Origin: a virus
Reading direction: 5' to 3' (one strand)
IMG/VR virus record: IMGVR_UViG_3300034093_001036
Span: 24,580-88,579 of that record
DNA: 64,000 bases
This document shows positions 3,466-40,948 of this stretch, one piece after another; position 1 is the stretch's first letter, and the number at the start of each line of letters is the position of its first letter. The notes beneath the pieces are model-generated. The model was not told the DNA's origin and did not search any database. It saw only the letters and a list, made by a program, of their open reading frames with translations. A program made the translations under genes and the position numbers.

Positions 3466-4100
3466 TATACTTCTTCCAAAGTTATTGAGACGTTCCAGTA
3501 ATCAAACTTAGTTCCTCTTTTTTCAACAGAATATGAAAAATCACTAATAAACATTTCTATAAGTTGATTGTATTGTCCAAGGTGGTCGTATGGTTCTGGT
3601 GTTCCACTAAATATACCCTTTCTATCGTAGGCAAGAAATACCCAAAAAGATCCTTTATGTGAGTCATACCACTCAAGCATATCTGCTCCACCTGCGCCTC
3701 CATCAGTTGTATAGGATACATATGGAGAAACTCCAGTAGCAGTATCAAAACTTGGAATGTTTGCATGGGATCTAGACGGAATTAAATTCCAACTTGTACT
3801 TAGTGTTATTTTATCTGCAATGTGATATGATCTCATGCGACCATTAATCATTCTTTCACGCTTTTCAATTCTTTCTTCTGAAAAATCAAGGGGCTGTCTA
3901 TTATCATCAGTAATAAACAAGAATTGATCTAGAAGGGTTTGATCTTCAACATCTTCTGGGTCTACTCCAACTTCATACCCATAGGGAATGTACAAACCAT
4001 CTTTAAGAGTGCCAGAGTTTTCAGACCACAGCATACCGCTTGGTCTGTTATATTTTTTACGACCCTGAACATAGGTGACTCTTGGATCAATTTCTGGCAT
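3465..4100 (-). CDS. Putative distal tail protein
   Basis: 211-aa ORF immediately downstream of the tape measure gene, ending WNVSITLEEV; function inferred from synteny. Confidence 0.55.
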   Translation of the reverse strand: MPEIDPRVTYVQGRKKYNRPSGMLWSENSGTLKDGLYIPYGYEVGVDPEDVEDQTLLDQFLFITDDNRQPLDFSEERIEKRERMINGRMRSYHIADKITLSTSWNLIPSRSHANIPSFDTATGVSPYVSYTTDGGAGGADMLEWYDSHKGSFWVFLAYDRKGIFSGTPEPYDHLGQYNQLIEMFISDFSYSVEKRGTKFDYWNVSITLEEV

Positions 4101-7100
4101 TTAATGACACCCCTCTAATTCTTCTATCATCAACTTGTTTAATTGTTGACATTACTGCTTGTGCAATTTCATTTGGATTAGCATTTGTTTTTGCATTAAC
4201 AGTTAATGTATATGTATTATTATACACTGCTCCACCAACTGATTCGCCATTATTTATTTTTCTCATAGTATCTACGCCATAAGTATCTACAGCATACTTA
4301 CTCATTATAAATTCTCCTGGAGTTAACATTGCTGGAACTGTATCTGTGCCTTTAGCAAATCCACCAAGAGAGAACATTTTAGGAATTATTCCACCATTCA
4401 TTCTTCCTACTCTGCCCTTAGCATTTATTGCTGCTTGCTCTGCTGCTAGATCTGCTGCTTCTTTTGCCTTAAATCTAGAAAGATTAGATGCTTGATTTTG
4501 TACACTAATTGCTTCTGCTGCAGCAATTGCTGCTGCTTTTATTTGTGATGCAATAGACAGGGCCCCGATTATTCCATTTTCCATTGCTGCATTAGCGCTT
4601 GGGTGAAATGCTGCTGCTGCAATAGCAGGTGCATAATCTGCAGCCTTTTCTAATGCTGCTTTATTAATATCTTCTGCTTTTTTATTTCCTTCAGTTGATG
4701 CTTTTGGATCTGGAACAAATGGACCTGGACCTTGTGTTGCAGTTGTACCAGAGTTGCTTGAAGTATTCCCTGGTTGAGCCTGATATGCTGCAATAAGTTT
4801 TGCTTGAGTCTCTAGTGCAAGTTTCATAGAATCAACAAATGCAGCACTCTTAATTAATGCAAGGTCTACTTGATTTTTAATTGCTTCCCAAGCATCTTTT
4901 GTTTTGCCAAGAACCGTAAGTCCTTCTATATCTTTGTCTAATATTATTTGTCTTAAACGAATAAACTCTTGTGCTGGTTCTAGTTTCTCTTCTTCAATTT
5001 TAAATATTTTATCTTGAAGATCTTTGATTTCTTTTTCAAGTTCTAGTCTAGTTTTTCCACCCTGAGTTTTTACTCTAGACAATTCATATTCTCTAGATTT
5101 CTCTACAGCATCTTTTTGTTTTGTTACTGCATCTGCTGCTGCTTGGGCTCTCATATCCTGTACGGCCTTTGCTGCTGCTGAAATATCTCCAGAGGTTAGG
5201 GCCTCAGCAAGAGTTAGTTGACCCTTTTGCTGATTAGAAATAGAAGAGTTTAACTTTTCTACTTCATCTAAAGCCTTAATTCTTTCATCATACTTATCAT
5301 TAATTTTTTGTTCTTGCTCTTCAATACCCTTTAGTGCTGCTTCTTTGTCATCTATTTCATATTGAATTGCTGCAATTGCATTTTGTGCCTCTTTAATTAC
5401 TGCATTTTGTGATTTTGTATCTATTTTAAATTGTATATTTAGGGCTGTCTCCTGAACATCAAAGGCCTGCATAGCATTGCTAAAACCTTTATCAAATAAG
5501 CCTTGCATGAATTCAACGGTAGACTTTAATTGATTTAGCCTTTCAGTAAAATCGTCAATTAAATCATTTAACTCTCCCTGGGCTTTAACAATAATTGCTG
5601 TTGGTGCTCCGTTTGCTATTAACTTATTTAATCTCGATTGTTGTGAAGCAATTTGGCTTTCCATTGATTGTAGGTTTTCATCGGATGAAATTGCAAAAGC
5701 ATCTTCTGCCCCATACTTTGATCTTAGTCTTGCTTCTTGAATTGTGTTTTTCTTAAATTGTGCGATATCTGTTTTTACTCCTTGAATTGCCGCTGACTTT
5801 TCTTGTGCTGCAGTTAAAAGTTTATAGTTAGAAATCAAAGTTCTAAGGCTTTTATCATTTACTCCATTGGCAATGGCTGCTGCCAAAGTTTTATCAGAAA
5901 TTAATTGGTATGCCTCTGCTACTGGAACTCCAAGGTTTGCCAACTTATTAAATGCAGTTGATTGATTTTCAATAGCCTTGAAGTCTGCTTCCATGCTAGA
6001 CTTCCAGTCACCCATAGTTATTGAGTTTAATGCTTCCTGAATGTTTTTAGCATCTTCTTTTAGTCCAACAATATTTTTCTTGTTGTCAAACTTAAACAAT
6101 GAGTTCTTTTTCTGTTCATATACCTTTGGATCCATGCCAACGATTAGTTCGATAAAGTCTTGGCTTGTACCTAAGCCTCTTAGATCATTTTCTATACCGC
6201 TAAATACATCAATAGTTTTGTTACCACCAAACAGTTTATCTAGTGCCTTACGAGAAGCACCCCAGCCTTCTGTGACCTTGATCTGGTTCATTCGTACATC
6301 TCTTAGTTTCTTTACTAAGTCATCTAGTGGTGAGGACTGGACTTTGTTTCCATCGGCAGGAGTGTTTCCTCCTACTGGAGCCTTTACTCCTACTGATAAG
6401 TTATCTGTAACGGCTTTGTATCCTTGGGCTTCTGTGTATTTTTGTATTTTATAAGAAAGACTTCCTGTTACTCCTTGTCCACCTCTTGGTGCAGGCTCCT
6501 TAAGCCACGCCTTATAGTCTTCGCTTGCTTCAATTTTTGGCTCTGGAATATTAACTAATGTTGAAATTGTAGTTGTATAAACCTTTTGCTGATCTTCAGT
6601 TAATGTGTTAAAGTATGCTTCATCAAATGCTGCTGTTCCCTTAACCTCTGGCATAATCTCATAAACAATTTTTGCAGTTAAATCTTTGCTACCTTCAATT
6701 GCGTCTAGCATTTTATTTAATGATGCGTATGCCTCTTGGCTTTCCTTGCTTTTGTCAGTATAGTAACTGACCATAACATCTGATGGGATAACTGTATTGA
6801 GACTGTTTAACTTAATTATATTTTTTGTAAAATCAAGAGCATCTGAGTCTTTTTCAAATGCTTCTACCCTGGTTATAAATTTTGTTTGAACTGTCTTGTT
6901 AATGGTACCCTTTGCATCAAGAATATTCTGTGCTGCTACACCTATTGACTCAGATGTTGCACCACTAAACTTTGTAATAATTTTCATCATCACTGGGGCC
7001 ATGTCTTTATTGTCTGTTGCCATTTGCAAAAGACTTCTGAATACTGCTGGAGGAATATCTCCACTTGCCATCTTTGCTTGAATTAAAAACTCTTGTCCAC

Positions 7101-10100
7101 TATCGATAAGACCATCTTTTCTTAGATTTTTTGATTGCTGATTTACAGTATCTATATATGCTAACTGGTTAGGATCATTTTTGTATTTTGCAGTTGTGGC
7201 TTTTTTCATTCCAGACATCATTGCTTCTTGAAGTCCACCAGCACTATTGTATTGAGATACTATGTCTCCTTGCATTTTTGCTTGGGCTGCAGTTAGTTGA
7301 TCTCTTTTTCCAACTTTGCCTTTTTCTTTATCTCCTAAATACTCTTTCTCTAGTTCTAACGCCTCATTAATTTTACCCTGCAGCCTTAACTCTTCAATTT
7401 TTTTCTGATAATACATATCAAGAGAGTCAAGCATTTGTTTATTTTGTTCCATTGCAATTTTAGCATCTACCGCATAGGTTGCTCCAAGAACTGCTGCCTC
7501 TTTTGCATATTTCTTTGAGGCAAAGTATCCACCAATTGCTCCTACTGCTGTTCCAATTCCAGCACCTATAATTGCTCCTGCTAGAGTTCCTGCAGGTCCT
7601 AGTGCTGTTCCAATTCCAGCACCTGCTGCTGCTCCACCAAGAGCCGAAGCGCCTATGCCTAGTCCTTGTGTTACTTTTTGTCCAGCAAGTTGTTGTAAAA
7701 CACCAGCATTTTTTACATTATCAGCACTAGTTTTCATATTCTTTGCATTTGCATTTACCATATTTATTCTAACATTTAATGGATCGTTAACAAGGTTTTC
7801 TCCGTTTGGTCCAAGCAAACTTTCTAATTGAGCAATAACCTTTATACCAATAGACATATCTCCTGCTTGTCTAGCAGCATTCATAGCCAAACTTTTTGCC
7901 TGTGACATATCCATAGCACCAGACATAATTGCTGCAGAAAGTTGGCCACCTAAATCTTTCACTGCAACATTTCCTTTACCGTCAGCGTTCTGTTTTGAAA
8001 TTCTTGCAGTCAAAGCCTTTCCTTCTGCTGTTTGAGCATATGCTTCTCCATAAGTAGTCTTACCAGTTGCTGCGCCAAGCATTGCAAAAGAATTTTTTCT
8101 TCTTAGGTCCATCTGTTCTGAGGCTGTTGTCTTACCACCAAATTTTGCTATAGTCTGTAATGCAGATGTAGATCCTTTAAACTTTTCACCCTCTTCTAAA
8201 ACCTGATCTGCTGCTTTATCAAATGACATTCTCAAGGCAGCAAATGATCCAACTGTTGCAAGAAGTCCTACTGCTAAGGCTGAAGCAGGACTTTTTAACA
8301 TTGGAATTATCATAGACAATCCCATAAGTGGCATCATTAATTTTTGTGAGATTTCTCCAACTTTACCTGGTACCATAGAACCAATCATTGCTGCACCTGC
8401 TGCCATTCCGACACCGCCAGCAATTCCCATACCACCCTTACCTGCTACTTTTGCATTTTGTCTATTATTTTTAAGTCTTTGCAATTTAGTGGTTTCAAAT
8501 TTACCATTTGCCATTGAAGGTCCCATTGGCGTTCCAGAAACTGAAGGTGCTGGTGTAAACTGTGCTGCTGCTCTTTCACTAATAATTCTTTTTTGATATG
8601 CTACAGAGTTTGCTAACTTAGTTCTTCTTTCCATTTGTCTACGCATAGACTTGGCATCTGCATCCATTGGCCCCATGCCGTATAGTTTAGTTCTTGATGC
8701 TGCCGTCTTTGCTTGTGTTTTTGCTTCTGCCCTTTGGCGCTTTTCCATTTGTCTACGTAAAGATTTAGCATCTGCATCTATTGATCCCGTTCCATACAAA
8801 GCAGTCCTTGATGATGCTGCTGCGGATTGAGATATTGTTTTTCCAATAGTGGCACCAGCAGCCTTGGCTTTTGCAACAGATCCTTTTACTCCCGCAAGAA
8901 TTGCGTTTACAGTTGCATTCTTTGATCCTGGGGCATTTGCTTTTCCAACAATTCTTCCCTTGGGGCCTTGACGAACCGATGAAGCAACACTCGCTGGAGC
9001 AAGTCTTGTATCCTTTATGCTGCCAGAGTCTGATTTTAACTTTCCGTTATTTGGCTTTGTTGGTATTGGCTTTAGGTTACCCTTTTTGTCTTCAAGTACT
9101 TCATCTGGCTTTACCAAAATTGAACGATGGAAGTTATAAACCTTTTTCCAGTCTGCGTTTAAACCAGCCTGAAGTCTCTTATACATATCTTCATAAACTT
9201 TTTTGGCTGGATCTCCAGCATCAAGTTTAAAACCATCTATAGTTTTTCTTAATTTTGGAAGAGTTCTATTAATCTCATCTTTTATTTTTCTTTCATATTC
9301 ATCTGCAGACTGAATATTTTGTGGAATATCAGCAGTGGCATTTCCAAACCAGAAAGGAGAGTTGTTGGCATTTGGACCTGAAACACCTTTAAGATTGTGC
9401 ATAGCAATTGCTTCCATAGATGGAAGTCCTGCTGAATAAGATCTTGTTCCAGAGGCTTTATCAAATACTCCTGCTGCTCCAACATCAGTTACAACATTGC
9501 CTCCAAGGTTGCCTTTCTTAAGATCTTTGTCTCCACGAAGGCTTGATGCTACTAATTGCTTAATATATTCTTTTTCAGTAAAAGTTTTTGGCATTGTGTT
9601 TGGATCAAATCTTGAATCATATGGAGATTCCAAAACAATAATCTTTCTTTTTTTCTTAACATCTGGTTCATCAATATCTGTAGGATCAATCATTGTTTTG
9701 ATTGTTTGTCTTGGTGCTAGTAAGCCCTGTGCTCTAGCAATCTCAGTTCCTCTTTTTTCTGCTATAGCGTCTAACTCACTTAGCATTGGTTTTACAAATA
9801 CTTTTGACCCATCTGGTTTTGTAAATACTCCGCCAATGGTTGACATAAAATTACTTCTACCAGAACTCTGTGTTTCTTGAACACCAAAGTTTGTAGGCTT
9901 CTTTGCTCCAAAGGCAGTTTGAGATGCCTCTATTGCAACTGCTCTTAGTTTTTCTTTGTGCTCCATTGCTTTTTCAAGATCAAGCAATTGTGGGGCTGAT
10001 GGCGGTGCTGCAACCTTTGCTTTCTTTGCTGCCTTTGTGCCTTGAGAAATTACAGGGGTTGTTCCTGCTCCAAGTCTGTTCATATTAACTACGGTTCCTT

Positions 10101-12954
10101 CTGGAACTTGAACTCCATGGTATGTGCCTGCTGGAAGAGTTATAGTTGATGATCCAGTTACTACTCTTTTTTTACTATTAACTCTTTCATCAATGCTGTA
10201 GTCTAAGATTAAACCTTGTCTTTTTGCCTCATCAAGAATTTTTCTACTTTCATCAGGTGTAGTTCCTAATCCCTTACCCATATTAAATCTATAGTCTGTT
10301 GCATACAGTCCTTGAGATTTTACATAGCCTGGGTCGTTTGGACTTATTATTTTTGGAATTTCTTTCTTATATAAATTGTCAACTATTGAATCATTTATAA
10401 ATGGGCTTTTAGATTCTTGAATTGACTTTAAGAATGCATTATCTAGCGCTTGTGCCTGTACTGCAGACATTCCAGATGGAGACCATTTGCCTGCTCCACC
10501 CTTAATCCATTCATCTATAAACTGTTGCTTAGGTACTCCACCAGTTAGGCTAGGCATTGCTTTATTCATCCACTCAGGGAAGTTGAACATAAGACTGTGC
10601 TTTGTTGTTGTTACTGGTGGCAAACCTTGTGATATTAGAACCTGTTCCATAGTTATAAGTTTTAACTTTTGATCGGGAGACATATTAGGATTGCTCTTAA
10701 TAATGTCTGATATTAGTCTTGGCTCGCTGCGTCCGCCTACGTGTGTTTCATTAATTGCAACTGATTTAGCATCTGTTGTTGCTGCTACTTCAGGAGCAAA
10801 TGCTAATCCTTGAACTCTTCCGCCTGCAACCATGTGTGCAATGGCTGGTCTATTTGCTGGATCCTGTGCTGATTGTTGAGGGATTACTGCTTCACCAGGA
10901 GTTAGGTCTGCGTTTACGCTATCTTTATTTCCAGTTCCTGGAACGCTTGTTGTTCCTTTACCATATTTTTTAGGTGTAGGCAAGCGCTTTCCAGCACTGG
11001 GACCCGTAAATCCTATTTGTGCTGCAATGGCTCTTCTGTATGCATTTGCCAACATGTTAACTGCTGCTGTTTCAGAAGTAAAGGTTTGTCTTAATCTTTG
11101 ATGAACTTGATCAAGTGATGCTGCAACTGCTGATGCCTCTAACTGTTCTTTAGTTAAATAGTTTGTCTGCTCTCCTAATATTTGACTTGATTGACCCGTT
11201 CTGTTGTACATAGATTTTAATCCTGCAAACATTTTAATTATATTAGCAACAGCGTTTGCAATCAAACCAAATCCCATTAAAAGAACTGGTCCAACACCAG
11301 CAAGAGCAACTGTAAGAATAGTTAAGAATTTTTTAGTACCATCTCCTAAGTTATTAAACTTGTCAAGAATTTTCCCAACAAACTCAACAATAGGGGTTAA
11401 TGCTTTTAAGAATTGTTCTCCTACTGGAGCAATAGCCAATTTTAAATCTTCCATTGATTTTTTAAATTTGTATGTTGTTGTATTCTGAATTTTATCCAAT
11501 TCTCGTTGTGACAAGATTGCAAGTTCTTCTGTAGTTGCTTTTGTTAATGATAAGACTCTCTGTGCTTGTGTACCCTGGGTTGTTACGTTTTGAAACAGTG
11601 TGGAAAGTCTTGAAAACTGGAACTTACCAAATAGTTGTTCAATAGCACGAGCACGGTTAAGTGGGTCAAGAGTATCAAGTGCTTGTGCGAACCCAACAAC
11701 AGTTGCTTTAATGTCTCCTTGGTTGGCTTCAACAATTCCTTTAATATTTACGCCAAGTTCTCCAAGAAACTTGCTTGCCTTTGTTGATGGATTAATTAAT
11801 GATGCAAGACCAGACTTAAGTGCGTTAGCGCCTTCGGATGCATTGATTCCACCTTCTTTCATTGCTGTAAGGAAAAATGCTAAGTCTTCAACGTTTCCAC
11901 CAAGTTGCTTAACAACTGGTCCAGCCTTTGGAATTGCTATTGTTAAATCTTCAATAGATACTACAGTTTGGTTTTCAACTGCGTTAAGGAAATCAATTTT
12001 GTTTGCAAGATCTTCTGCTGCAACGCCAAAAGCGTTAGTTACAGAAATTGTTGTCTCTAATGCCTGCGTTTGTTCTACTCCGCCAAGAACTGCAAGCCTT
12101 GTTGCCTGTACAACTTGTGCAACTAATTCTGCACCCATCTTGCCCATTGCTGCAGCATCTGCAGCCATTTTCATTGTGTCTTCTATTGCAACGCCATACT
12201 TAGTATATTCTGTTGCAAGTTTTTGAATTTGCTTAACCATTGCATCAGTTTCTGCTTGTGTTGTAAACATTTCTCCATACACACGCTTAAATCTAATTGC
12301 CTGCTCTTCAAGTTTCATGAATGTTTTTGAAGCAACTGTACCAAGCATTGCAAGTGGAACAGTAAAACCAACCATTAACTGACGTCCTGCCCACTGAGTA
12401 TTCTTACCAAAGTTTAGGAGATTGGTTGATCCTTGTCTTAATAATTGATTAAGTAGTTGTTGTCTCTGTGCAGCAATGGCTGTTTGTGTGCCCAGATTTT
12501 TCATATCAAGCGTTAGAGGTCTTACCGCAATTGCTTGTAGTGCTCCATTGGCACCTCTGCCCATTTTTACATACTGGGTCTGTATATCTTTTACACGCTC
12601 TCGTGCAACTTTATTTAATGTTTCAAATTCAGATCTAAACAGTCTTCCAAAAGTTTTTGTTGCTGCTCCAGTATATCTAAAATATTCTCTAGATGTTAAC
12701 TTGTTTCTTTCTAAAGCATTAGTAAAAGACTCTGTACTTGATGTTACTGTTCGCATAGATGCTTGGAATTTTCCAGTAGCATTTATGCTGTTCATCAAGT
12801 TCTGTGCTTGATTTGCTGCTACCGCTGAGGCTGCGGTACCAGACTTTGCCATTTGTGTATGGAAGGCTGATATTTGACGTTGTAGAAGTTTTAGACTTGC
12901 TAAAGCATCAGACGTATCAATATTTACATGAATATTGGATTCTACATCAGCCAT
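4087..12954 (-). CDS. Tail tape measure protein with internal accessory domains, including a kinase-like one
   Basis: 2955 aa with a TP901-type core (AVENQTVVSIEDL...EGANALKSGLASL), coiled coils, Gly/Ala-rich hydrophobic segments and a C-terminal DTVPAMLTPGEF motif. Confidence 0.93.
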   Translation of the reverse strand: MADVESNIHVNIDTSDALASLKLLQRQISAFHTQMAKSGTAASAVAANQAQNLMNSINATGKFQASMRTVTSSTESFTNALERNKLTSREYFRYTGAATKTFGRLFRSEFETLNKVARERVKDIQTQYVKMGRGANGALQAIAVRPLTLDMKNLGTQTAIAAQRQQLLNQLLRQGSTNLLNFGKNTQWAGRQLMVGFTVPLAMLGTVASKTFMKLEEQAIRFKRVYGEMFTTQAETDAMVKQIQKLATEYTKYGVAIEDTMKMAADAAAMGKMGAELVAQVVQATRLAVLGGVEQTQALETTISVTNAFGVAAEDLANKIDFLNAVENQTVVSIEDLTIAIPKAGPVVKQLGGNVEDLAFFLTAMKEGGINASEGANALKSGLASLINPSTKASKFLGELGVNIKGIVEANQGDIKATVVGFAQALDTLDPLNRARAIEQLFGKFQFSRLSTLFQNVTTQGTQAQRVLSLTKATTEELAILSQRELDKIQNTTTYKFKKSMEDLKLAIAPVGEQFLKALTPIVEFVGKILDKFNNLGDGTKKFLTILTVALAGVGPVLLMGFGLIANAVANIIKMFAGLKSMYNRTGQSSQILGEQTNYLTKEQLEASAVAASLDQVHQRLRQTFTSETAAVNMLANAYRRAIAAQIGFTGPSAGKRLPTPKKYGKGTTSVPGTGNKDSVNADLTPGEAVIPQQSAQDPANRPAIAHMVAGGRVQGLAFAPEVAATTDAKSVAINETHVGGRSEPRLISDIIKSNPNMSPDQKLKLITMEQVLISQGLPPVTTTKHSLMFNFPEWMNKAMPSLTGGVPKQQFIDEWIKGGAGKWSPSGMSAVQAQALDNAFLKSIQESKSPFINDSIVDNLYKKEIPKIISPNDPGYVKSQGLYATDYRFNMGKGLGTTPDESRKILDEAKRQGLILDYSIDERVNSKKRVVTGSSTITLPAGTYHGVQVPEGTVVNMNRLGAGTTPVISQGTKAAKKAKVAAPPSAPQLLDLEKAMEHKEKLRAVAIEASQTAFGAKKPTNFGVQETQSSGRSNFMSTIGGVFTKPDGSKVFVKPMLSELDAIAEKRGTEIARAQGLLAPRQTIKTMIDPTDIDEPDVKKKRKIIVLESPYDSRFDPNTMPKTFTEKEYIKQLVASSLRGDKDLKKGNLGGNVVTDVGAAGVFDKASGTRSYSAGLPSMEAIAMHNLKGVSGPNANNSPFWFGNATADIPQNIQSADEYERKIKDEINRTLPKLRKTIDGFKLDAGDPAKKVYEDMYKRLQAGLNADWKKVYNFHRSILVKPDEVLEDKKGNLKPIPTKPNNGKLKSDSGSIKDTRLAPASVASSVRQGPKGRIVGKANAPGSKNATVNAILAGVKGSVAKAKAAGATIGKTISQSAAASSRTALYGTGSIDADAKSLRRQMEKRQRAEAKTQAKTAASRTKLYGMGPMDADAKSMRRQMERRTKLANSVAYQKRIISERAAAQFTPAPSVSGTPMGPSMANGKFETTKLQRLKNNRQNAKVAGKGGMGIAGGVGMAAGAAMIGSMVPGKVGEISQKLMMPLMGLSMIIPMLKSPASALAVGLLATVGSFAALRMSFDKAADQVLEEGEKFKGSTSALQTIAKFGGKTTASEQMDLRRKNSFAMLGAATGKTTYGEAYAQTAEGKALTARISKQNADGKGNVAVKDLGGQLSAAIMSGAMDMSQAKSLAMNAARQAGDMSIGIKVIAQLESLLGPNGENLVNDPLNVRINMVNANAKNMKTSADNVKNAGVLQQLAGQKVTQGLGIGASALGGAAAGAGIGTALGPAGTLAGAIIGAGIGTAVGAIGGYFASKKYAKEAAVLGATYAVDAKIAMEQNKQMLDSLDMYYQKKIEELRLQGKINEALELEKEYLGDKEKGKVGKRDQLTAAQAKMQGDIVSQYNSAGGLQEAMMSGMKKATTAKYKNDPNQLAYIDTVNQQSKNLRKDGLIDSGQEFLIQAKMASGDIPPAVFRSLLQMATDNKDMAPVMMKIITKFSGATSESIGVAAQNILDAKGTINKTVQTKFITRVEAFEKDSDALDFTKNIIKLNSLNTVIPSDVMVSYYTDKSKESQEAYASLNKMLDAIEGSKDLTAKIVYEIMPEVKGTAAFDEAYFNTLTEDQQKVYTTTISTLVNIPEPKIEASEDYKAWLKEPAPRGGQGVTGSLSYKIQKYTEAQGYKAVTDNLSVGVKAPVGGNTPADGNKVQSSPLDDLVKKLRDVRMNQIKVTEGWGASRKALDKLFGGNKTIDVFSGIENDLRGLGTSQDFIELIVGMDPKVYEQKKNSLFKFDNKKNIVGLKEDAKNIQEALNSITMGDWKSSMEADFKAIENQSTAFNKLANLGVPVAEAYQLISDKTLAAAIANGVNDKSLRTLISNYKLLTAAQEKSAAIQGVKTDIAQFKKNTIQEARLRSKYGAEDAFAISSDENLQSMESQIASQQSRLNKLIANGAPTAIIVKAQGELNDLIDDFTERLNQLKSTVEFMQGLFDKGFSNAMQAFDVQETALNIQFKIDTKSQNAVIKEAQNAIAAIQYEIDDKEAALKGIEEQEQKINDKYDERIKALDEVEKLNSSISNQQKGQLTLAEALTSGDISAAAKAVQDMRAQAAADAVTKQKDAVEKSREYELSRVKTQGGKTRLELEKEIKDLQDKIFKIEEEKLEPAQEFIRLRQIILDKDIEGLTVLGKTKDAWEAIKNQVDLALIKSAAFVDSMKLALETQAKLIAAYQAQPGNTSSNSGTTATQGPGPFVPDPKASTEGNKKAEDINKAALEKAADYAPAIAAAAFHPSANAAMENGIIGALSIASQIKAAAIAAAEAISVQNQASNLSRFKAKEAADLAAEQAAINAKGRVGRMNGGIIPKMFSLGGFAKGTDTVPAMLTPGEFIMSKYAVDTYGVDTMRKINNGESVGGAVYNNTYTLTVNAKTNANPNEIAQAVMSTIKQVDDRRIRGVSLNARN

Positions 12955-12972: not shown

Positions 12973-13296
12973 TTAGTTATTTGCAAGGTTGCCAAGTAGT
13001 GATGCGTCAGAAAGTTTAATTCCTGATGCCTCTTCGACAATCTTGTATACTGTTGGAAGATCTAGATTTTCTTCTAGGGCTTCCTTGTCTTCTGCCAATT
13101 CTGGCTTGTATTGTTTCATTGCGATTTGAACACAGTCCATTAACAAATCCATAGACTTTTCGTTATCTTCTGCGACCTTTGCAATGTCTTCAAACTTCTT
13201 CATAAACGGACGAAGTAGAGAAATCTTAAGTGGTCTTACCTTGATCTTTGTTCCATCGATCAGAGTTACTGTCTTTTCTTCAGTGGCGATTGCCAT
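12973..13296 (-). CDS. Tail assembly chaperone, short gpG-like form
   Basis: 107 aa between tail tube and tape measure genes, with AAGGAGG RBS and its own TGGTATAAT promoter at 13323-13331. Homologous to the N-terminal half of 13352-14032. Confidence 0.75.
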   Translation of the reverse strand: MAIATEEKTVTLIDGTKIKVRPLKISLLRPFMKKFEDIAKVAEDNEKSMDLLMDCVQIAMKQYKPELAEDKEALEENLDLPTVYKIVEEASGIKLSDASLLGNLANN

Positions 13297-13351: not shown

Positions 13352-14032
13352 CTATTCGGAAACCTCATAATCAATACCCATGCCAATGCCAAACCCTGCT
13401 CTTTCAGCATTTACTCCTTGTAGGGCCAGAATATCATTTCCATTTCCTGTTGCACCCTTGCTAAATACTCTAGCCTTCATGTCTTCCCATTCATTACCGC
13501 TACCAGAATTTTTATCTAAATCTACACCTTGCATTGCTGCAGCAAACTTTTTATCACTGTAGTCTAATTCTCTTTTTATCTTTAGTGTGGCTGTTAGTTC
13601 TTGCATAGACATTGATGATTCTAACTGATCATAGTCTTTCCATATACCGATCAAAAAAACCTCTGACTCTAGTTTTGCCAAGTCTAAGGTTTCCCATGTT
13701 GATCCACTGTCAACTGCCTGATTTTTAACAGTGTCTTCTGACTTCTCATTAATTTTGATTCCCGCTGCAACATCAATAACATCATAGATAGTTGGTAAGT
13801 CTAGGCTGTCTTCTAAATCTTCAATAGTTTTAATTGATGGGCAATATTGTTGCATTGCAATAAGAGCGCATTGAGCCAAAATAGATATTGATTCATCATC
13901 ACTTTTTGCTTCTTTAATTTTTTCAAAGGTTTCTAAAAATTCTCTTAAGTATTTTATTTTTAATGGGGCAGCAATAATAACTCTATCATCTACTAGTGAT
14001 ATTTTTTTTGTTTCATATATTTTTGTTGCCAT
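13352..14032 (-). CDS. Tail assembly chaperone, long gpGT-like form
   Basis: Likely start ATG 14032 (MATKIYE), 6 nt after TGGTATACT. N-terminal half is paralogous to the 107-aa chaperone, followed by a C-terminal extension. Confidence 0.7.
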   Translation of the reverse strand: MATKIYETKKISLVDDRVIIAAPLKIKYLREFLETFEKIKEAKSDDESISILAQCALIAMQQYCPSIKTIEDLEDSLDLPTIYDVIDVAAGIKINEKSEDTVKNQAVDSGSTWETLDLAKLESEVFLIGIWKDYDQLESSMSMQELTATLKIKRELDYSDKKFAAAMQGVDLDKNSGSGNEWEDMKARVFSKGATGNGNDILALQGVNAERAGFGIGMGIDYEVSE

Positions 14033-14046
14033 TATATAAGTATACC

Positions 14047-14082
14047 AAACAGAAAGGCCCAACCCCGAAGGATTGAGCCTCT
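14047..14082 (-). terminator. Intrinsic terminator after the tail tube gene
   Basis: Minus strand reads AGGCTCAATCC-TTCG-GGGTTGGGCCT followed by TTCTGTTT. Confidence 0.8.
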
Positions 14083-38230: not shown

Positions 38231-40948
38231 TTATGCTGTGAGATCTCCAACAACAACCCAAGAGTCTGTTGCTCTCTTCATTAATGTTGCTGATGACCAC
38301 TGTGTACGAAGTTTTAATCCTGGAGTTGCATTAACTGTTACTCCTACTGCTCCAGCAATTGTTACTTGTCCCGCACCAGTTTGAAGGATATCAATTGATG
38401 ATCCTATTGGAAAGGCTGTTGTTGCATTTGTTGGAATTGTAACTGTTACTCCAGTAGCAGAAGAAACTTCAATTAATGAATCTCTTTCATTAAGTGCTGC
38501 AAGTGTGTAGCCTGCTGTTTTTTGTATAATTGTTGTACGTGATGGAACGCCTTCTTTTGTTTGTGTTCCATCTGTGAATTGTACTCCGCCTGCTGGAACA
38601 GTTATTCCTACGCCAGTAAATATTGGGGAAGCAAGTGGTGCATATGTATTTGCTGCTGTTGATGAAGCAAGTTTTAGGTCTAAAGCAGTTTGTGTAGCAG
38701 TTGAAACTGGCTTGTTAGCGTCGGAAGTATTTTCTACGTTTCCAAGACCAACCATTGTTGCTGAAATACCTGAAACTGTTCCACTAAATGCTGGGGAACT
38801 AAGTGGTGCATACCCTGAAATGCTTGCGCCTGTAGGAATTGTTACTTCTCCAGTAAATGTTGGTGAGGCTAGTGGTGCATACCCTGAAATGCTTGCGCCT
38901 GCAGGAATTGTTACTGATCCAGTAAATGTTGGTGCATGCAATGGTGCCTTATAACCAAGTACTGTGTGTGTAGCAGTTGAAACTGGCTTATCTGCATCTG
39001 CTGTATTATCAACAGATCCTAGGCCTACCATTGACTTTGTTACACCAGACACAGTTCCTGTGAATGTTGGTGAAGCAATTGGTGCCTTAGCAGCAAGGTC
39101 AGATGTTAAACCTGAAATCTTAGACTGTGCAATTGCGGCTGATGCGTTAACGTCTGCGTCTACAATTGTTCCATCAAGTATCAGCGATGAAGTTATTGCC
39201 CCAGTTGAAATAGAAACTTCGTTACCTGATACAGTTACTCCAGTTCCTGCTGTAATTGTTCCTGAACCTGAGAACTGGAATACATCAATGTTATCCGTTC
39301 CAACAACAAATGTTGCAGGGTCTGCAACTACCTGAATCCATCCTGTTCCAGCGTTTGTTCCATCTTGTACGAATATGTATGCGCCTGGAATCTCTGATGC
39401 TTCATCACAATATGTACAACGAGTAAGAACATATGGTGTTGATGCAGATCCCATGTCTGAAACATAGTATCTACCATTTTGAGCCTTATTGGTTTGATTC
39501 TTTACAAGAATACCCTTGTAAAGTGCCCAACCTGATGCGCCACCTGATTCTGCAGGAAATGCTCCATTGGTGTTATGTGTAAGAGTTGCTCCTACACCTG
39601 CTGTACCATTATTGTATGTAGCATCAATATTTGCTGTTGTTGCTCCAAGAACCTGTGGCTTTGCAATAACTCCTGATGCTGTATTATCAACATACTGCTT
39701 AGTTGCTGCATGTAGTGATGATGATGGATCTGCAGAAAGTGTAAGTGCTCCTGTCATTGTACCGCCAGCAAGCGCTAACTTAGAAGATAGGTCGTCAGTA
39801 AGTCCTGAAATCTTTGATTGTGCAATTGCTGCAGACTCATTAATGTCTGCGTTTACGATTGCTCCATCAAGGATCATTCCTGAAGTAACTGTTCCAGTTG
39901 GTAGAGTTACTGTTCCTGTAAATGTTGGAGAAGCAAGATTTGCCTTTAGATCAAGTGCTGCTTGTGCAGCAGTTGAAACTGGCTTGTTAACATCAGATGT
40001 GTTGTCTACGTTTCCAAGATCAACCATTGCCTTTGTAATACCAGAAACTGTACCTGTAAATGTAGGTGAAGCAAGTGGTGACTTTAGATCAAGTGCTGTT
40101 TGAGTATCACTAGATATTGGCTTATTTGCATCAGAAGTATTATCTGCATCTGCAAGTCCAACCATATCTTTTGTAACTGCACCAGTTGCAATTTTAGCAT
40201 TTGTAACTGCTTGATCTGCAATTTTTGCAGTAGTTACTGCTTCTGCTCCAATTTTTCCTGCTGTAACTGCTGTATCGGCAATGTCTGCTGTCACAATAGT
40301 TCCTTCAGCAATCATTCCACTTGTAACTGTTCCTGATGGAAGATTTACTGTACCAATAAATGTTGGTGAATCAAGGTTTGCCTTAAAATCAAGGGCTGTT
40401 TGAGTTGCTGTTGAAACTGGCTTATTAGCATCTGTTGTATTGTTAACTGATCCTAAGCCAACATCTGACGCTGTTATTCCTAAAGGAGTTACAAAAGTTT
40501 TGTTAGTTAATGTTTGTGTTCCTGATAGTGTTGCAAGAACTAGCGTGTCTGTAATACCATGAACATTTGATGTATCTGTATTATGGTTTGAAAGAATTGT
40601 TGTTGTTACTAAATCTGCTGTATTTGTAATACCATGGATATCAGTTGTGTCTGTAGCATGGTTTGTCAAGTTTGTTGCTATTGTTGTTAAGAATGCTGGG
40701 TTGTCTCCCATGGCTGCTGCTAATTCATTAAGTGTATCAAGAGTTGCTGGTAAATCAATTCCAGAAAGACCACCCAAGATTGACTCTGCATCTGTAAAGT
40801 ACTTGAGGGATGCCCATGCAGAAGAACCGTTACCTACTTTAAATTTAACTGTGTCGGTTTCAAAACCAATTTCTCCTGCTGCCAAAGTTGGGTTTGCAGC
40901 CGTCCATTGCGCTGCTGTTCCTCTGCGCTGTTGCATTCTTGTTGCCAT
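38231..40948 (-). CDS. Tail fibre-like protein with Mtd/hyaluronidase-type N-terminal domain
   Basis: N-terminus MQQRRGTAAQWTAANPTLAAGEIGFETDT.KFKVG, about five GLGNVDNTSD.NKPVSTATQTALDLKA repeats and many ASPTFTG repeats. Confidence 0.8.
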   Translation of the reverse strand: MATRMQQRRGTAAQWTAANPTLAAGEIGFETDTVKFKVGNGSSAWASLKYFTDAESILGGLSGIDLPATLDTLNELAAAMGDNPAFLTTIATNLTNHATDTTDIHGITNTADLVTTTILSNHNTDTSNVHGITDTLVLATLSGTQTLTNKTFVTPLGITASDVGLGSVNNTTDANKPVSTATQTALDFKANLDSPTFIGTVNLPSGTVTSGMIAEGTIVTADIADTAVTAGKIGAEAVTTAKIADQAVTNAKIATGAVTKDMVGLADADNTSDANKPISSDTQTALDLKSPLASPTFTGTVSGITKAMVDLGNVDNTSDVNKPVSTAAQAALDLKANLASPTFTGTVTLPTGTVTSGMILDGAIVNADINESAAIAQSKISGLTDDLSSKLALAGGTMTGALTLSADPSSSLHAATKQYVDNTASGVIAKPQVLGATTANIDATYNNGTAGVGATLTHNTNGAFPAESGGASGWALYKGILVKNQTNKAQNGRYYVSDMGSASTPYVLTRCTYCDEASEIPGAYIFVQDGTNAGTGWIQVVADPATFVVGTDNIDVFQFSGSGTITAGTGVTVSGNEVSISTGAITSSLILDGTIVDADVNASAAIAQSKISGLTSDLAAKAPIASPTFTGTVSGVTKSMVGLGSVDNTADADKPVSTATHTVLGYKAPLHAPTFTGSVTIPAGASISGYAPLASPTFTGEVTIPTGASISGYAPLSSPAFSGTVSGISATMVGLGNVENTSDANKPVSTATQTALDLKLASSTAANTYAPLASPIFTGVGITVPAGGVQFTDGTQTKEGVPSRTTIIQKTAGYTLAALNERDSLIEVSSATGVTVTIPTNATTAFPIGSSIDILQTGAGQVTIAGAVGVTVNATPGLKLRTQWSSATLMKRATDSWVVVGDLTA

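Follow-up and report, generated by a model that had tools for sequence, protein, structure and literature searches.

The tape measure protein (TMP) of an uncultured lake phage contains, in the interior of its 2,955-residue chain, a domain of about 275 residues that very probably adopts a complete two-lobed protein-kinase-like fold, as judged from a predicted model, and that constitutes a new sequence family of this fold, absent from Pfam, NCBIfam, and PHROGs. The phage is represented by an 88.6-kb IMG/VR virus record (IMGVR_UViG_3300034093_001036; CheckV completeness estimate 81%), of which bases 24580–88579 were analyzed as one stretch of 64,000 nucleotides, here called the window. According to the open reading frame list and its translation, the TMP gene is a single uninterrupted frame at window positions 4087..12954 on the minus strand, as are all parts of the TMP described below. 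The kinase-fold domain, delimited by the span of its homologues, by the AlphaFold2 (AF2) model, and by structural matches, covers amino acids (aa) 1010–1285 (9100..9927). Its predicted structure and conserved residues suggest that the module is probably an active ATP-dependent phosphotransferase, and the evidence leans, if not strongly, toward an overall reading in which this phosphotransferase would be delivered with the TMP and, ahead of phage gene expression, act on a target of the host at the membrane or inside it.

Motifs and conservation of the domain

The 2,955-aa protein is a phage tail tape measure protein. PF10145 matches aa 244–443 (E 1.5e-24; 87.4 bits, cut-off 33.2), TIGR01760 scores 103.8 bits (cut-off 28.8), and nine TMP PHROGs match the first 600–700 residues, the best being phrog_10030 (E 4.6e-100). 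An earlier note on this DNA, prepared from the letters and the open reading frames, had proposed a protein- or lipid-kinase-like domain at window 9120–9870, which corresponds to TMP aa 1029–1279, on the strength of five motifs. All five were located exactly at the places quoted: IGGVFTKPDG (aa 1040–1049; window 9808–9837), VFVKP containing K1055 (aa 1052–1056; window 9787–9801), AEKR containing E1066 (aa 1065–1068; window 9751–9762), GDKDLKKGNL containing D1142, D1144, and N1149 (aa 1141–1150; window 9505–9534), and a DVG eight residues past N1149 (aa 1157–1159; 9478..9486). By itself the motif string is not significant: written as a loose regular expression, the whole motif order is also matched by 288 of 2,000 residue shuffles of the TMP, and the core D-x4-N-x5-20-D-x-G is present in 785 of 2,000. 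Because the string alone matches chance, the reality of the domain rests on its conservation and its predicted fold.

With aa 986–1318 as the query, HMMER was run exhaustively over 1.84 billion representative proteins and found 155 proteins matching the domain at E <= 1e-3, including 118 at E <= 1e-30, and the matched stretch is nearly always query residues ~25–298 (TMP aa ~1010–1283). Conservation was read from an alignment of the query with 127 domain-spanning homologues (128 sequences, identity down to 29%), with 23 partial ones left out. Nine residues, G1032, G1042, K1055, E1066, P1081, Q1133, N1149, D1157, and F1203, are identical in all 128 sequences; D1144 and S1034 are each retained in 127, G1159 in 125, and G1041 in 104, while D1142 is present in 123 and replaced by Asn in the remaining 5. 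The Lys, Glu, Asp, Asn, and Asp of the kinase-like motifs are thus kept with few or no exceptions; the earlier note had staked its reading on the conservation of the Lys, Asp, and Asn among homologues. The domain is under purifying selection, the ratio of nonsynonymous to synonymous substitution rates (dN/dS) across its core being 0.09–0.18 in codon alignments of 276 core codons against five close relatives.

The homologues are mostly very large proteins, 124 of the best 150 among the 155 having 1,500 aa or more, and 108 of these 124 have in common (E <= 1e-5) the TMP's N-terminal core, referred to below as the N-core. PF10145 is present in 3 of 3 divergent homologues scanned. A Pfam scan of six kinase-bearing proteins without a detected N-core gave no informative match, and these may be fragments or divergent TMPs. 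The domain is encoded by 242 IMG/VR loci; at E <= 1e-3, tblastn of the domain matched none of 50,697 GenBank phage records, and among representative genomes of 185,579 prokaryote species (GTDB) it was found at 2 loci, both on contigs of metagenome-assembled genomes (MAGs); in two MAGs the family profile scores 1e-119 to 1e-130. The domain is thus found almost only in giant TMPs of uncultured phages.

Predicted fold and structural neighbors

Given a 45-row alignment of IMG/VR loci and short database fragments, AF2 produced a model of aa 1006–1292 with a predicted local distance difference test (pLDDT) score of 88.9 and a predicted template modeling (pTM) score of 0.87; with the single sequence of aa 986–1318 the pLDDT was 39.7 and the model unusable. 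The N-lobe of the model has strands at model residues 20–24, 37–40, and 46–51. G1032-R-S1034 (9853..9861), a candidate nucleotide-binding loop, lies between the first two of these strands, the conserved pair G1041-G1042 (9829..9834) stands at the start of the second, and K1055 (model residue 50; 9790..9792), the predicted beta-3 lysine equivalent, is at the end of the third. Helix 55–70 carries E1066 (residue 61; 9757..9759), the predicted alpha-C glutamate equivalent, and is followed by strands 79–84 and 99–106 and by helix 122–135, right after which comes the putative catalytic loop D1142-K-D1144-L-K-K-G-N1149 (9508..9531; D1144 is residue 139 and N1149 residue 144). A tight, short hairpin at 145–150 then leads to D1157-V-G1159, the DFG equivalent, with D1157 as residue 152, and the helical C-lobe of ~110 residues follows with helices 175–182, 197–201, 212–236, 244–261, and 264–273. 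The order of elements is that of kinases: three strands, helix, two strands, helix, catalytic loop, hairpin, DxG, and helical C-lobe. The features that define the protein-kinase-like (PKL) class, namely a two-lobed fold (in the predicted model), a beta-3 Lys with an alpha-C Glu, a catalytic-loop D-x4-N, and a D-x-G, are all present.

Searches with the model return kinases. In Foldseek against the PDB, CtkA occupies the first six rows (E 4e-4 to 1.4e-3, probability 0.99–1.0), followed further down by eukaryotic-type kinases, SidJ (rank 8), HipA, PIK3C3, CotH, actin-fragmin kinase, and Rio. VIA-align, an aligner independent of Foldseek, was run against 48,161 representative chains and has a stated background of Z 7–8; among the matches listed, 50 of 50 rows are kinases or kinase-fold proteins by title. 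Its top match is CotH (5jda; Z 11.4, 218 residues aligned over model residues 8–265, root mean square deviation 4.6 Å), and further Z scores are 10.2 for PI4KII-alpha (4pla), 10.1 for MavQ (7m7a), 9.8 for CtkA, 9.3 for HipA (4pu3), 9.0 for ATM, 8.9 for Fam20C, 8.9–9.1 for Vps34, and 6.5–7.8 for Bud32 and RIO proteins. A Z of 8 is reached by only 19 of the 48,161 chains. Realignment of Foldseek's best 1,000 chains brought CtkA (3akk_B) to Z 11.1. The nearest solved structures are therefore those of the classes named in the earlier note, CtkA, PI3/PI4 kinases, and HipA, together with CotH, and the kinase-like fold that it had proposed is borne out at the level of prediction. While the class of fold is clear, the scores, which tie within ~2 units, do not single out a nearest subfamily.

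Searches among predicted structures agree with this assignment. The best matches among BFVD predicted viral structures are large phage proteins, some labeled as having a PI3K/PI4K catalytic domain and some fused to portal or head-morphogenesis domains. In the ESM atlas, clusters without a name match at 0.96, and LepB_N is the sole named family, at 0.94–0.95.

Sequence-family searches

Sequence models tell a different story. An hmmscan of aa 986–1318 against Pfam-A at E <= 10 returned only a chance Tup_N row (E 0.14); neither CotH (PF08757) nor LepB_N (PF18640) was listed, and the domain is not a member of either family by this search. The kinase-fold domain had no match in PHROGs or NCBIfam; phmmer against the PDB found no kinase, and a PDB profile search gave four chance rows, none of them a kinase. 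At E <= 10 the PI3_PI4_kinase model (PF00454) matches nothing in the whole virus record, nor does the HipA_C model (PF07804), which did match the positive-control genomes, and membership in these two families is likewise not indicated. The resemblance to CotH and LepB_N thus appears to be confined to predicted structure or language-model features. Because the domain escapes the sequence models of Pfam, NCBIfam, PHROGs, and the PDB, it is assigned to a new sequence family.

Profile-profile comparison gave the same result. When the 128-row family alignment was compared by hhalign with a HipA alignment of 19 rows from E. coli K-12 and actinobacterial genomes, the probability was 0.86% (E 0.064, not significant), and against E. 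coli HipA alone it was 0.1%. The greedy alignment from the 19-row comparison, which is thus not significant either, pairs K1055 with the HipA Lys, D1144 with D309 (a label taken from a PDB title), and N1149 with the Asn five positions further on. It was not used for residue roles, because it matches the Asp of the DxG to an Asp that is not conserved.

A variable slot in the tape measure protein

The N-core (aa 1–700; 10855..12954) is common to the kinase-less TMPs of actinophages in culture and of close uncultured relatives. By tblastn it matches 279 GenBank phage records at ~30% identity, among them 127 Streptomyces and 87 Gordonia phages. The best match is Streptomyces phage Tomas (31% identity across aa 17–697), whose TMP has 2,094 aa; BLASTP aligns it with aa 50–697 and again, weakly, near the C-terminus. 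The kinase family profile finds nothing in the Tomas genome at E <= 1.

Closer relatives were sampled as the 80 IMG/VR loci with the closest N-cores (65–100% identity; the best 80 of at least 595 relatives). The 64 whose TMP frame is closed and no shorter than 2,000 aa were kept, and 16 that were truncated or shorter were left out. The kinase domain is present in 32 of these 64 closest complete TMPs, and the other 32 have other sequence in the corresponding slot (aa ~700–1400). In six kinase-less TMPs (L155, L160, L165, L174, L186, and L193) collinearity with the TMP studied here ends at aa 664–827 and resumes at aa 1352–1500, and the slot is filled by unrelated stretches of 194–789 residues, in which a Pfam scan found nothing above cut-off; these stretches may be other cargo modules. 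That collinearity breaks and resumes around aa 700–1400 indicates that the kinase module, here together with a second insert, occupies an exchangeable slot, and since half of the closest TMPs lack the module, neither the building of the tail nor the entry of the DNA depends on it.

The second insert, domain A (aa 720–1005; 9940..10797), lies directly upstream of the kinase module. It occurs in only 9 of 150 kinase-bearing homologues (the best 150 of 155), is not helix-rich in composition, and has no match in Pfam, PHROG, NCBIfam, or the ESM atlas. At the left edge of the slot, where the N-core ends, a motif search located an internal LTPGE motif (aa 684–688; 10891..10905), and a second copy is found near the C-terminus (aa 2877–2881; 4312..4326), flanked by a stretch, GE[FY].M.K.AV..YG.D.M..IN, that aligns with the Tomas TMP. 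Because the motif appears twice in similar contexts, the N-terminal 700 residues give the impression of a small TMP, complete in itself, that was extended by the slot and a long second part. Past the domain a Ser/Thr/Lys-rich linker spans aa ~1290–1400, and near the right edge of the slot a regular expression finds two copies of a 19-aa peptide, LYG.G..DADAKS.RRQME (aa 1386–1404 and 1424–1442; window 8743–8799 and 8629–8685). The DADAKS..RR peptide was considered as a general fence of the module and rejected, as it is confined to the closest relatives, in one or two copies. Also rejected was a free kinase made from an internal start: no in-frame start ahead of the domain has a Shine-Dalgarno sequence, the only in-frame ATG, at aa 997, included, and the frame is continuous through the slot.

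The kinase module is flanked on both sides by hydrophobic segments. One lies in the N-core (aa 541–577; 11224..11334; Kyte-Doolittle average of at least 1.5 in a 19-residue window); on the other side hydropathy marks hydrophobic, glycine-rich segments at aa 1510–1578 (8221..8427) and a glycine-zipper-like segment at aa 1788–1812 (7519..7593), to which PF13488 gives a weak match (E 0.0039, below cut-off).

Gene neighborhood and host

The TMP gene lies between putative tail-chaperone genes and distal tail genes. Its neighborhood encodes a portal and proteins of the major-capsid and Ig-domain major-tail types, and also holds two phrog_10504 genes and the gene of a large minor tail protein; the order of structural genes is syntenic with that of Streptomyces phage Tomas. 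The two phrog_10504 genes are adjacent and lie upstream of the TMP (window 12973–13296 and 13352–14062, minus strand); the longer also matches phrog_10474, and together they resemble a tail-chaperone gene and its duplicate more than a G/GT pair made by frameshifting. Distant from the tail module, window 38231–40948 (minus strand) encodes a 905-aa protein whose repeated stretches match 34 tail-fibre or minor-tail PHROG families.

The host is probably an actinobacterium, because the cultured relatives of the N-core, the synteny with Tomas, and the MAG labels all point to Actinomycetota. Judged by the first word of their names, 228 of the 279 records matching the N-core are phages of Streptomyces, Gordonia, Rhodococcus, or Tsukamurella, and the two GTDB MAG contigs with the domain are labeled Acidimicrobiaceae and Bifidobacterium. 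In the MAG labeled Acidimicrobiaceae (G002), locus L088 lies on contig C65 and locus L090 on contig C43, each with a kinase-bearing frame of ~2,900 aa; these kinase-bearing contigs are probably co-binned phage contigs, and as a hint to the host the two are weak. A search for WhiB gave 13.4 bits, below the cut-off, and was disregarded, and no tRNAs were found in the window.

Proposed function and alternative readings

The module appears to retain the full set of residues for phosphotransfer: the Lys1055/Glu1066 pair, which would anchor ATP, Asp1144 with Asn1149, and Asp1157-x-Gly, which would bind metal. This is the ground for regarding it as a probable active phosphotransferase. A TMP occupies the tail tube; at infection it is the first component to be expelled, and it contributes to the channel across the envelope. 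As part of the TMP the module would be built into the tail, probably extended and not natively folded; it would leave the virion ahead of the DNA and refold at or across the cytoplasmic membrane between its flanking hydrophobic segments, where it would meet ATP. By analogy with other TMPs, we give this sequence of tail carriage, exit before the DNA, and refolding at the membrane an even chance of being correct. The kinase would then phosphorylate a host component before any phage gene is expressed, and for an enzyme a few copies per virion would suffice. The likeliest target would be Ser/Thr of a protein, for shut-off or anti-defence, as with HipA, CtkA, CotH, and the T7 kinase; a membrane lipid or sugar would be the second choice. 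Delivery together with a host target is, on the same kind of analogy, evenly balanced between being right and being wrong.

Several points weigh against delivery of an active kinase. No sequence model of any known kinase family detects the domain, whether from Pfam, the PDB, or hhalign comparison. The structural scores are moderate, with Foldseek TM-scores of 0.33–0.37 and Z scores of 9–11, a few units above the background of 7–8, and residue roles were assigned from order, spacing, and model secondary structure, not from coordinate superposition. The earlier note took the eight-residue spacing between the loop Asn and the DxG Asp as the signature of PI3/PI4-kinase, HipA, and CtkA-like folds, and this did not hold up: the gap in eukaryotic protein kinases, PI3Ks, and HipA is 13–18 residues, so that the spacing here is shorter than in known kinases, and the model has a short hairpin in its place. 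Activity is a prediction for every member of the family, and half of the closest TMPs (32 of 64) are without the module. Physical constraints also count against it. There is no ATP outside the cytoplasm, and the lumen of a siphophage tail tube is ~4 nm wide, into which three folded 31-kDa domains would not fit; carriage would therefore need an unfolded or otherwise accommodated state, placement elsewhere, or removal during assembly.

The likeliest alternative, although it is itself unlikely, is that the kinase acts in the producing cell on the TMP or on other tail proteins, controlling assembly or ejection, and is thereafter an inert passenger or clipped off. ATP would certainly be available while the TMP is folded in the cytoplasm with chaperones, and the misfit between a folded domain and the tail lumen also speaks for this reading. 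CotH, the top structural match and by title a Bacillus kinase, phosphorylates spore-coat assembly proteins, which offers a parallel for assembly substrates, and the Ser/Thr/Lys-rich linker that follows the domain is also in keeping with such a role. Assembly, however, does not need the module, which 32 of the 64 closest and otherwise collinear TMPs lack; being optional and swappable is more typical of modules with conflict functions, and no co-varying substrate motif was found, although no systematic search for one was made.

Unlikely too, and ranked behind action in the producing cell, is a delivered lipid or sugar kinase that modifies the membrane at the entry site, for example at phosphatidylinositol, and so aids the channel or alters the membrane. 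PI4KII-alpha, MavQ, and Vps34 are among the near structures (Z 10.2, 10.1, and 8.9–9.1), LepB_N is the one named family among the ESM atlas matches, the domain lies between hydrophobic segments, and the probable host belongs to the actinobacteria, which have phosphatidylinositol lipids. Against this, protein kinases score equally within error (CotH 11.4, CtkA 11.1, HipA 9.3), the data say nothing on the substrate, and the host assignment is indirect.

It is improbable that the kinase fold here serves other chemistry, such as AMPylation, SidJ-like glutamylation, or the ATPase switch of Bud32 or RIO proteins. Kinase-fold enzymes can carry out other chemistry, so the precedent is established, and SidJ stands at Foldseek rank 8 with Bud32 and RIO at Z 6.5–7.8, but the Lys/Glu pair, D-x4-N, and DxG are all kept in canonical order, and the top structural matches are true phosphotransferases. 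It is very improbable that the module is catalytically dead and purely structural, giving the TMP no more than bulk or a binding surface, as a spacer or plug would. Its dispensability in half of the relatives and the predicted status of the kinase activity would suit such a module, whereas pseudokinases usually lose some of the catalytic residues, and here they are kept almost without exception across 128 sequences, of which the most divergent has 29% identity, at a dN/dS of 0.09–0.18. The third option of the earlier note, a toxin against protists that graze on infected bacteria or phage particles, can be set aside almost entirely: MavQ, LepB_N, and CtkA do come from bacteria that act on eukaryotic cells, but the domain carries no eukaryote-directed signal or motif and is integral to a tail protein whose known route is the bacterial envelope.

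Relation to known systems and significance

None of the solved kinases closest to the predicted model is close in sequence or setting. CotH of Bacillus cereus (5jda/5jd9), the best structural match, shares the bilobal kinase fold, but at 10% identity and as a free bacterial protein rather than a domain internal to a phage TMP. CtkA, the secreted Ser/Thr kinase of Helicobacter pylori (3akj/3akk/3akl), is of similar size (~280 aa) and aligns at Z 9.8–11.1 over ~200 residues; its identity is 12–14%, it is not detected at the sequence level, and it comes from another organism and context. Type II PI 4-kinase, Legionella MavQ, LepB_N, and Vps34 resemble the domain in structure (Z 8.9–10.2) and through the LepB_N clusters of the ESM atlas, but identity is 9–10% and PF00454 finds nothing in the record. 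HipA and HipT align at Z 9.3 (4pu3), 8.2 (HipT, 7ab3), and 9.0 (8ezr), but they belong to toxin-antitoxin systems, and no partner of the HipB or HipS type is present here.

The kinase of phage T7 (gp0.7) differs from the module in being made from an early gene after entry and not being part of the virion, and no sequence relation between the two was detected. It resembles the module as a phage kinase that acts on host proteins; in the available text of Iyer et al. (2017, PMC5512222) its targets include translation factors, and in that of PMC13645617 it is reported to disarm defences by broad phosphorylation. The same available text of Iyer et al. describes kinase domains predicted in polyvalent proteins of phages and plasmids that are injected with the DNA, and thus kinase-fold domains within large multidomain virion proteins, as proposed here. 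These kinases are described there as lacking the whole C-terminal subdomain, whereas the present domain appears to keep a helical C-lobe and is not one of them; they come from (pro)phages of Verrucomicrobia-Chlamydia and Bacteroidetes, and 'tape measure' occurs 0 times in the available text of that article (PMC5512222).

For delivery the best precedent, by analogy, appears to be the RNA polymerase fused to the TMP of Thermus phage P23-45. As Chaban et al. (2024, PMC10770324) report, this TMP (gp96) has 5,002 residues, and its N-terminal part is a virion RNA polymerase that transcribes pre-early genes, so that a giant TMP carries in the same polypeptide an enzyme that acts in the cytoplasm and enters with the DNA. 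In the present TMP the uninterrupted frame likewise places enzyme and TMP in one polypeptide. The difference, as far as the available text of the P23-45 article goes, is that its polymerase is N-terminal and experimentally shown, whereas here a predicted kinase lies in an internal variable slot (PMC10770324). A description of a kinase-fold module inside a TMP was not found in full-text searches of the published literature, supplements and external files aside. What was known already is thus the kinase fold itself and enzymes that ride in virion proteins; what was not found in print is a kinase-fold module within a TMP.

A more specific picture can be put forward tentatively, with rather less confidence than delivery as such. 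In an abundant and large group of freshwater phages, uncultured and probably actinobacterial, the TMPs might be delivery vehicles with an exchangeable payload slot, which in half of them would hold an active atypical kinase. This would pass through the tail as an unfolded thread, regain its fold on the inner side of the host membrane, and phosphorylate a defence or translation protein, or a membrane phosphoinositide, within seconds of adsorption and ahead of any phage gene expression.

TMPs are usually viewed as rulers and channel formers, and to our knowledge cell-wall hydrolases are the only enzymes that are common within them. The domain defines a compact new sequence family of the kinase fold in which no cellular members were found. 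It lends itself to the question of how a globular enzyme can pass through a tube of 4 nm and, given a cultured host, would make the phages of freshwater, probably actinobacterial, hosts accessible to experiment. If the proposed reading is true, a conserved active kinase in hundreds of uncultured phages would extend the cargo of TMPs to signaling and modification enzymes. Such cargo would act before phage gene expression, in a window of time that defence cannot pre-empt by blocking transcription. Pre-packaged phosphorylation would then be a first strike in host takeover or anti-defence, and the TMP a general scaffold for the injection of effectors.

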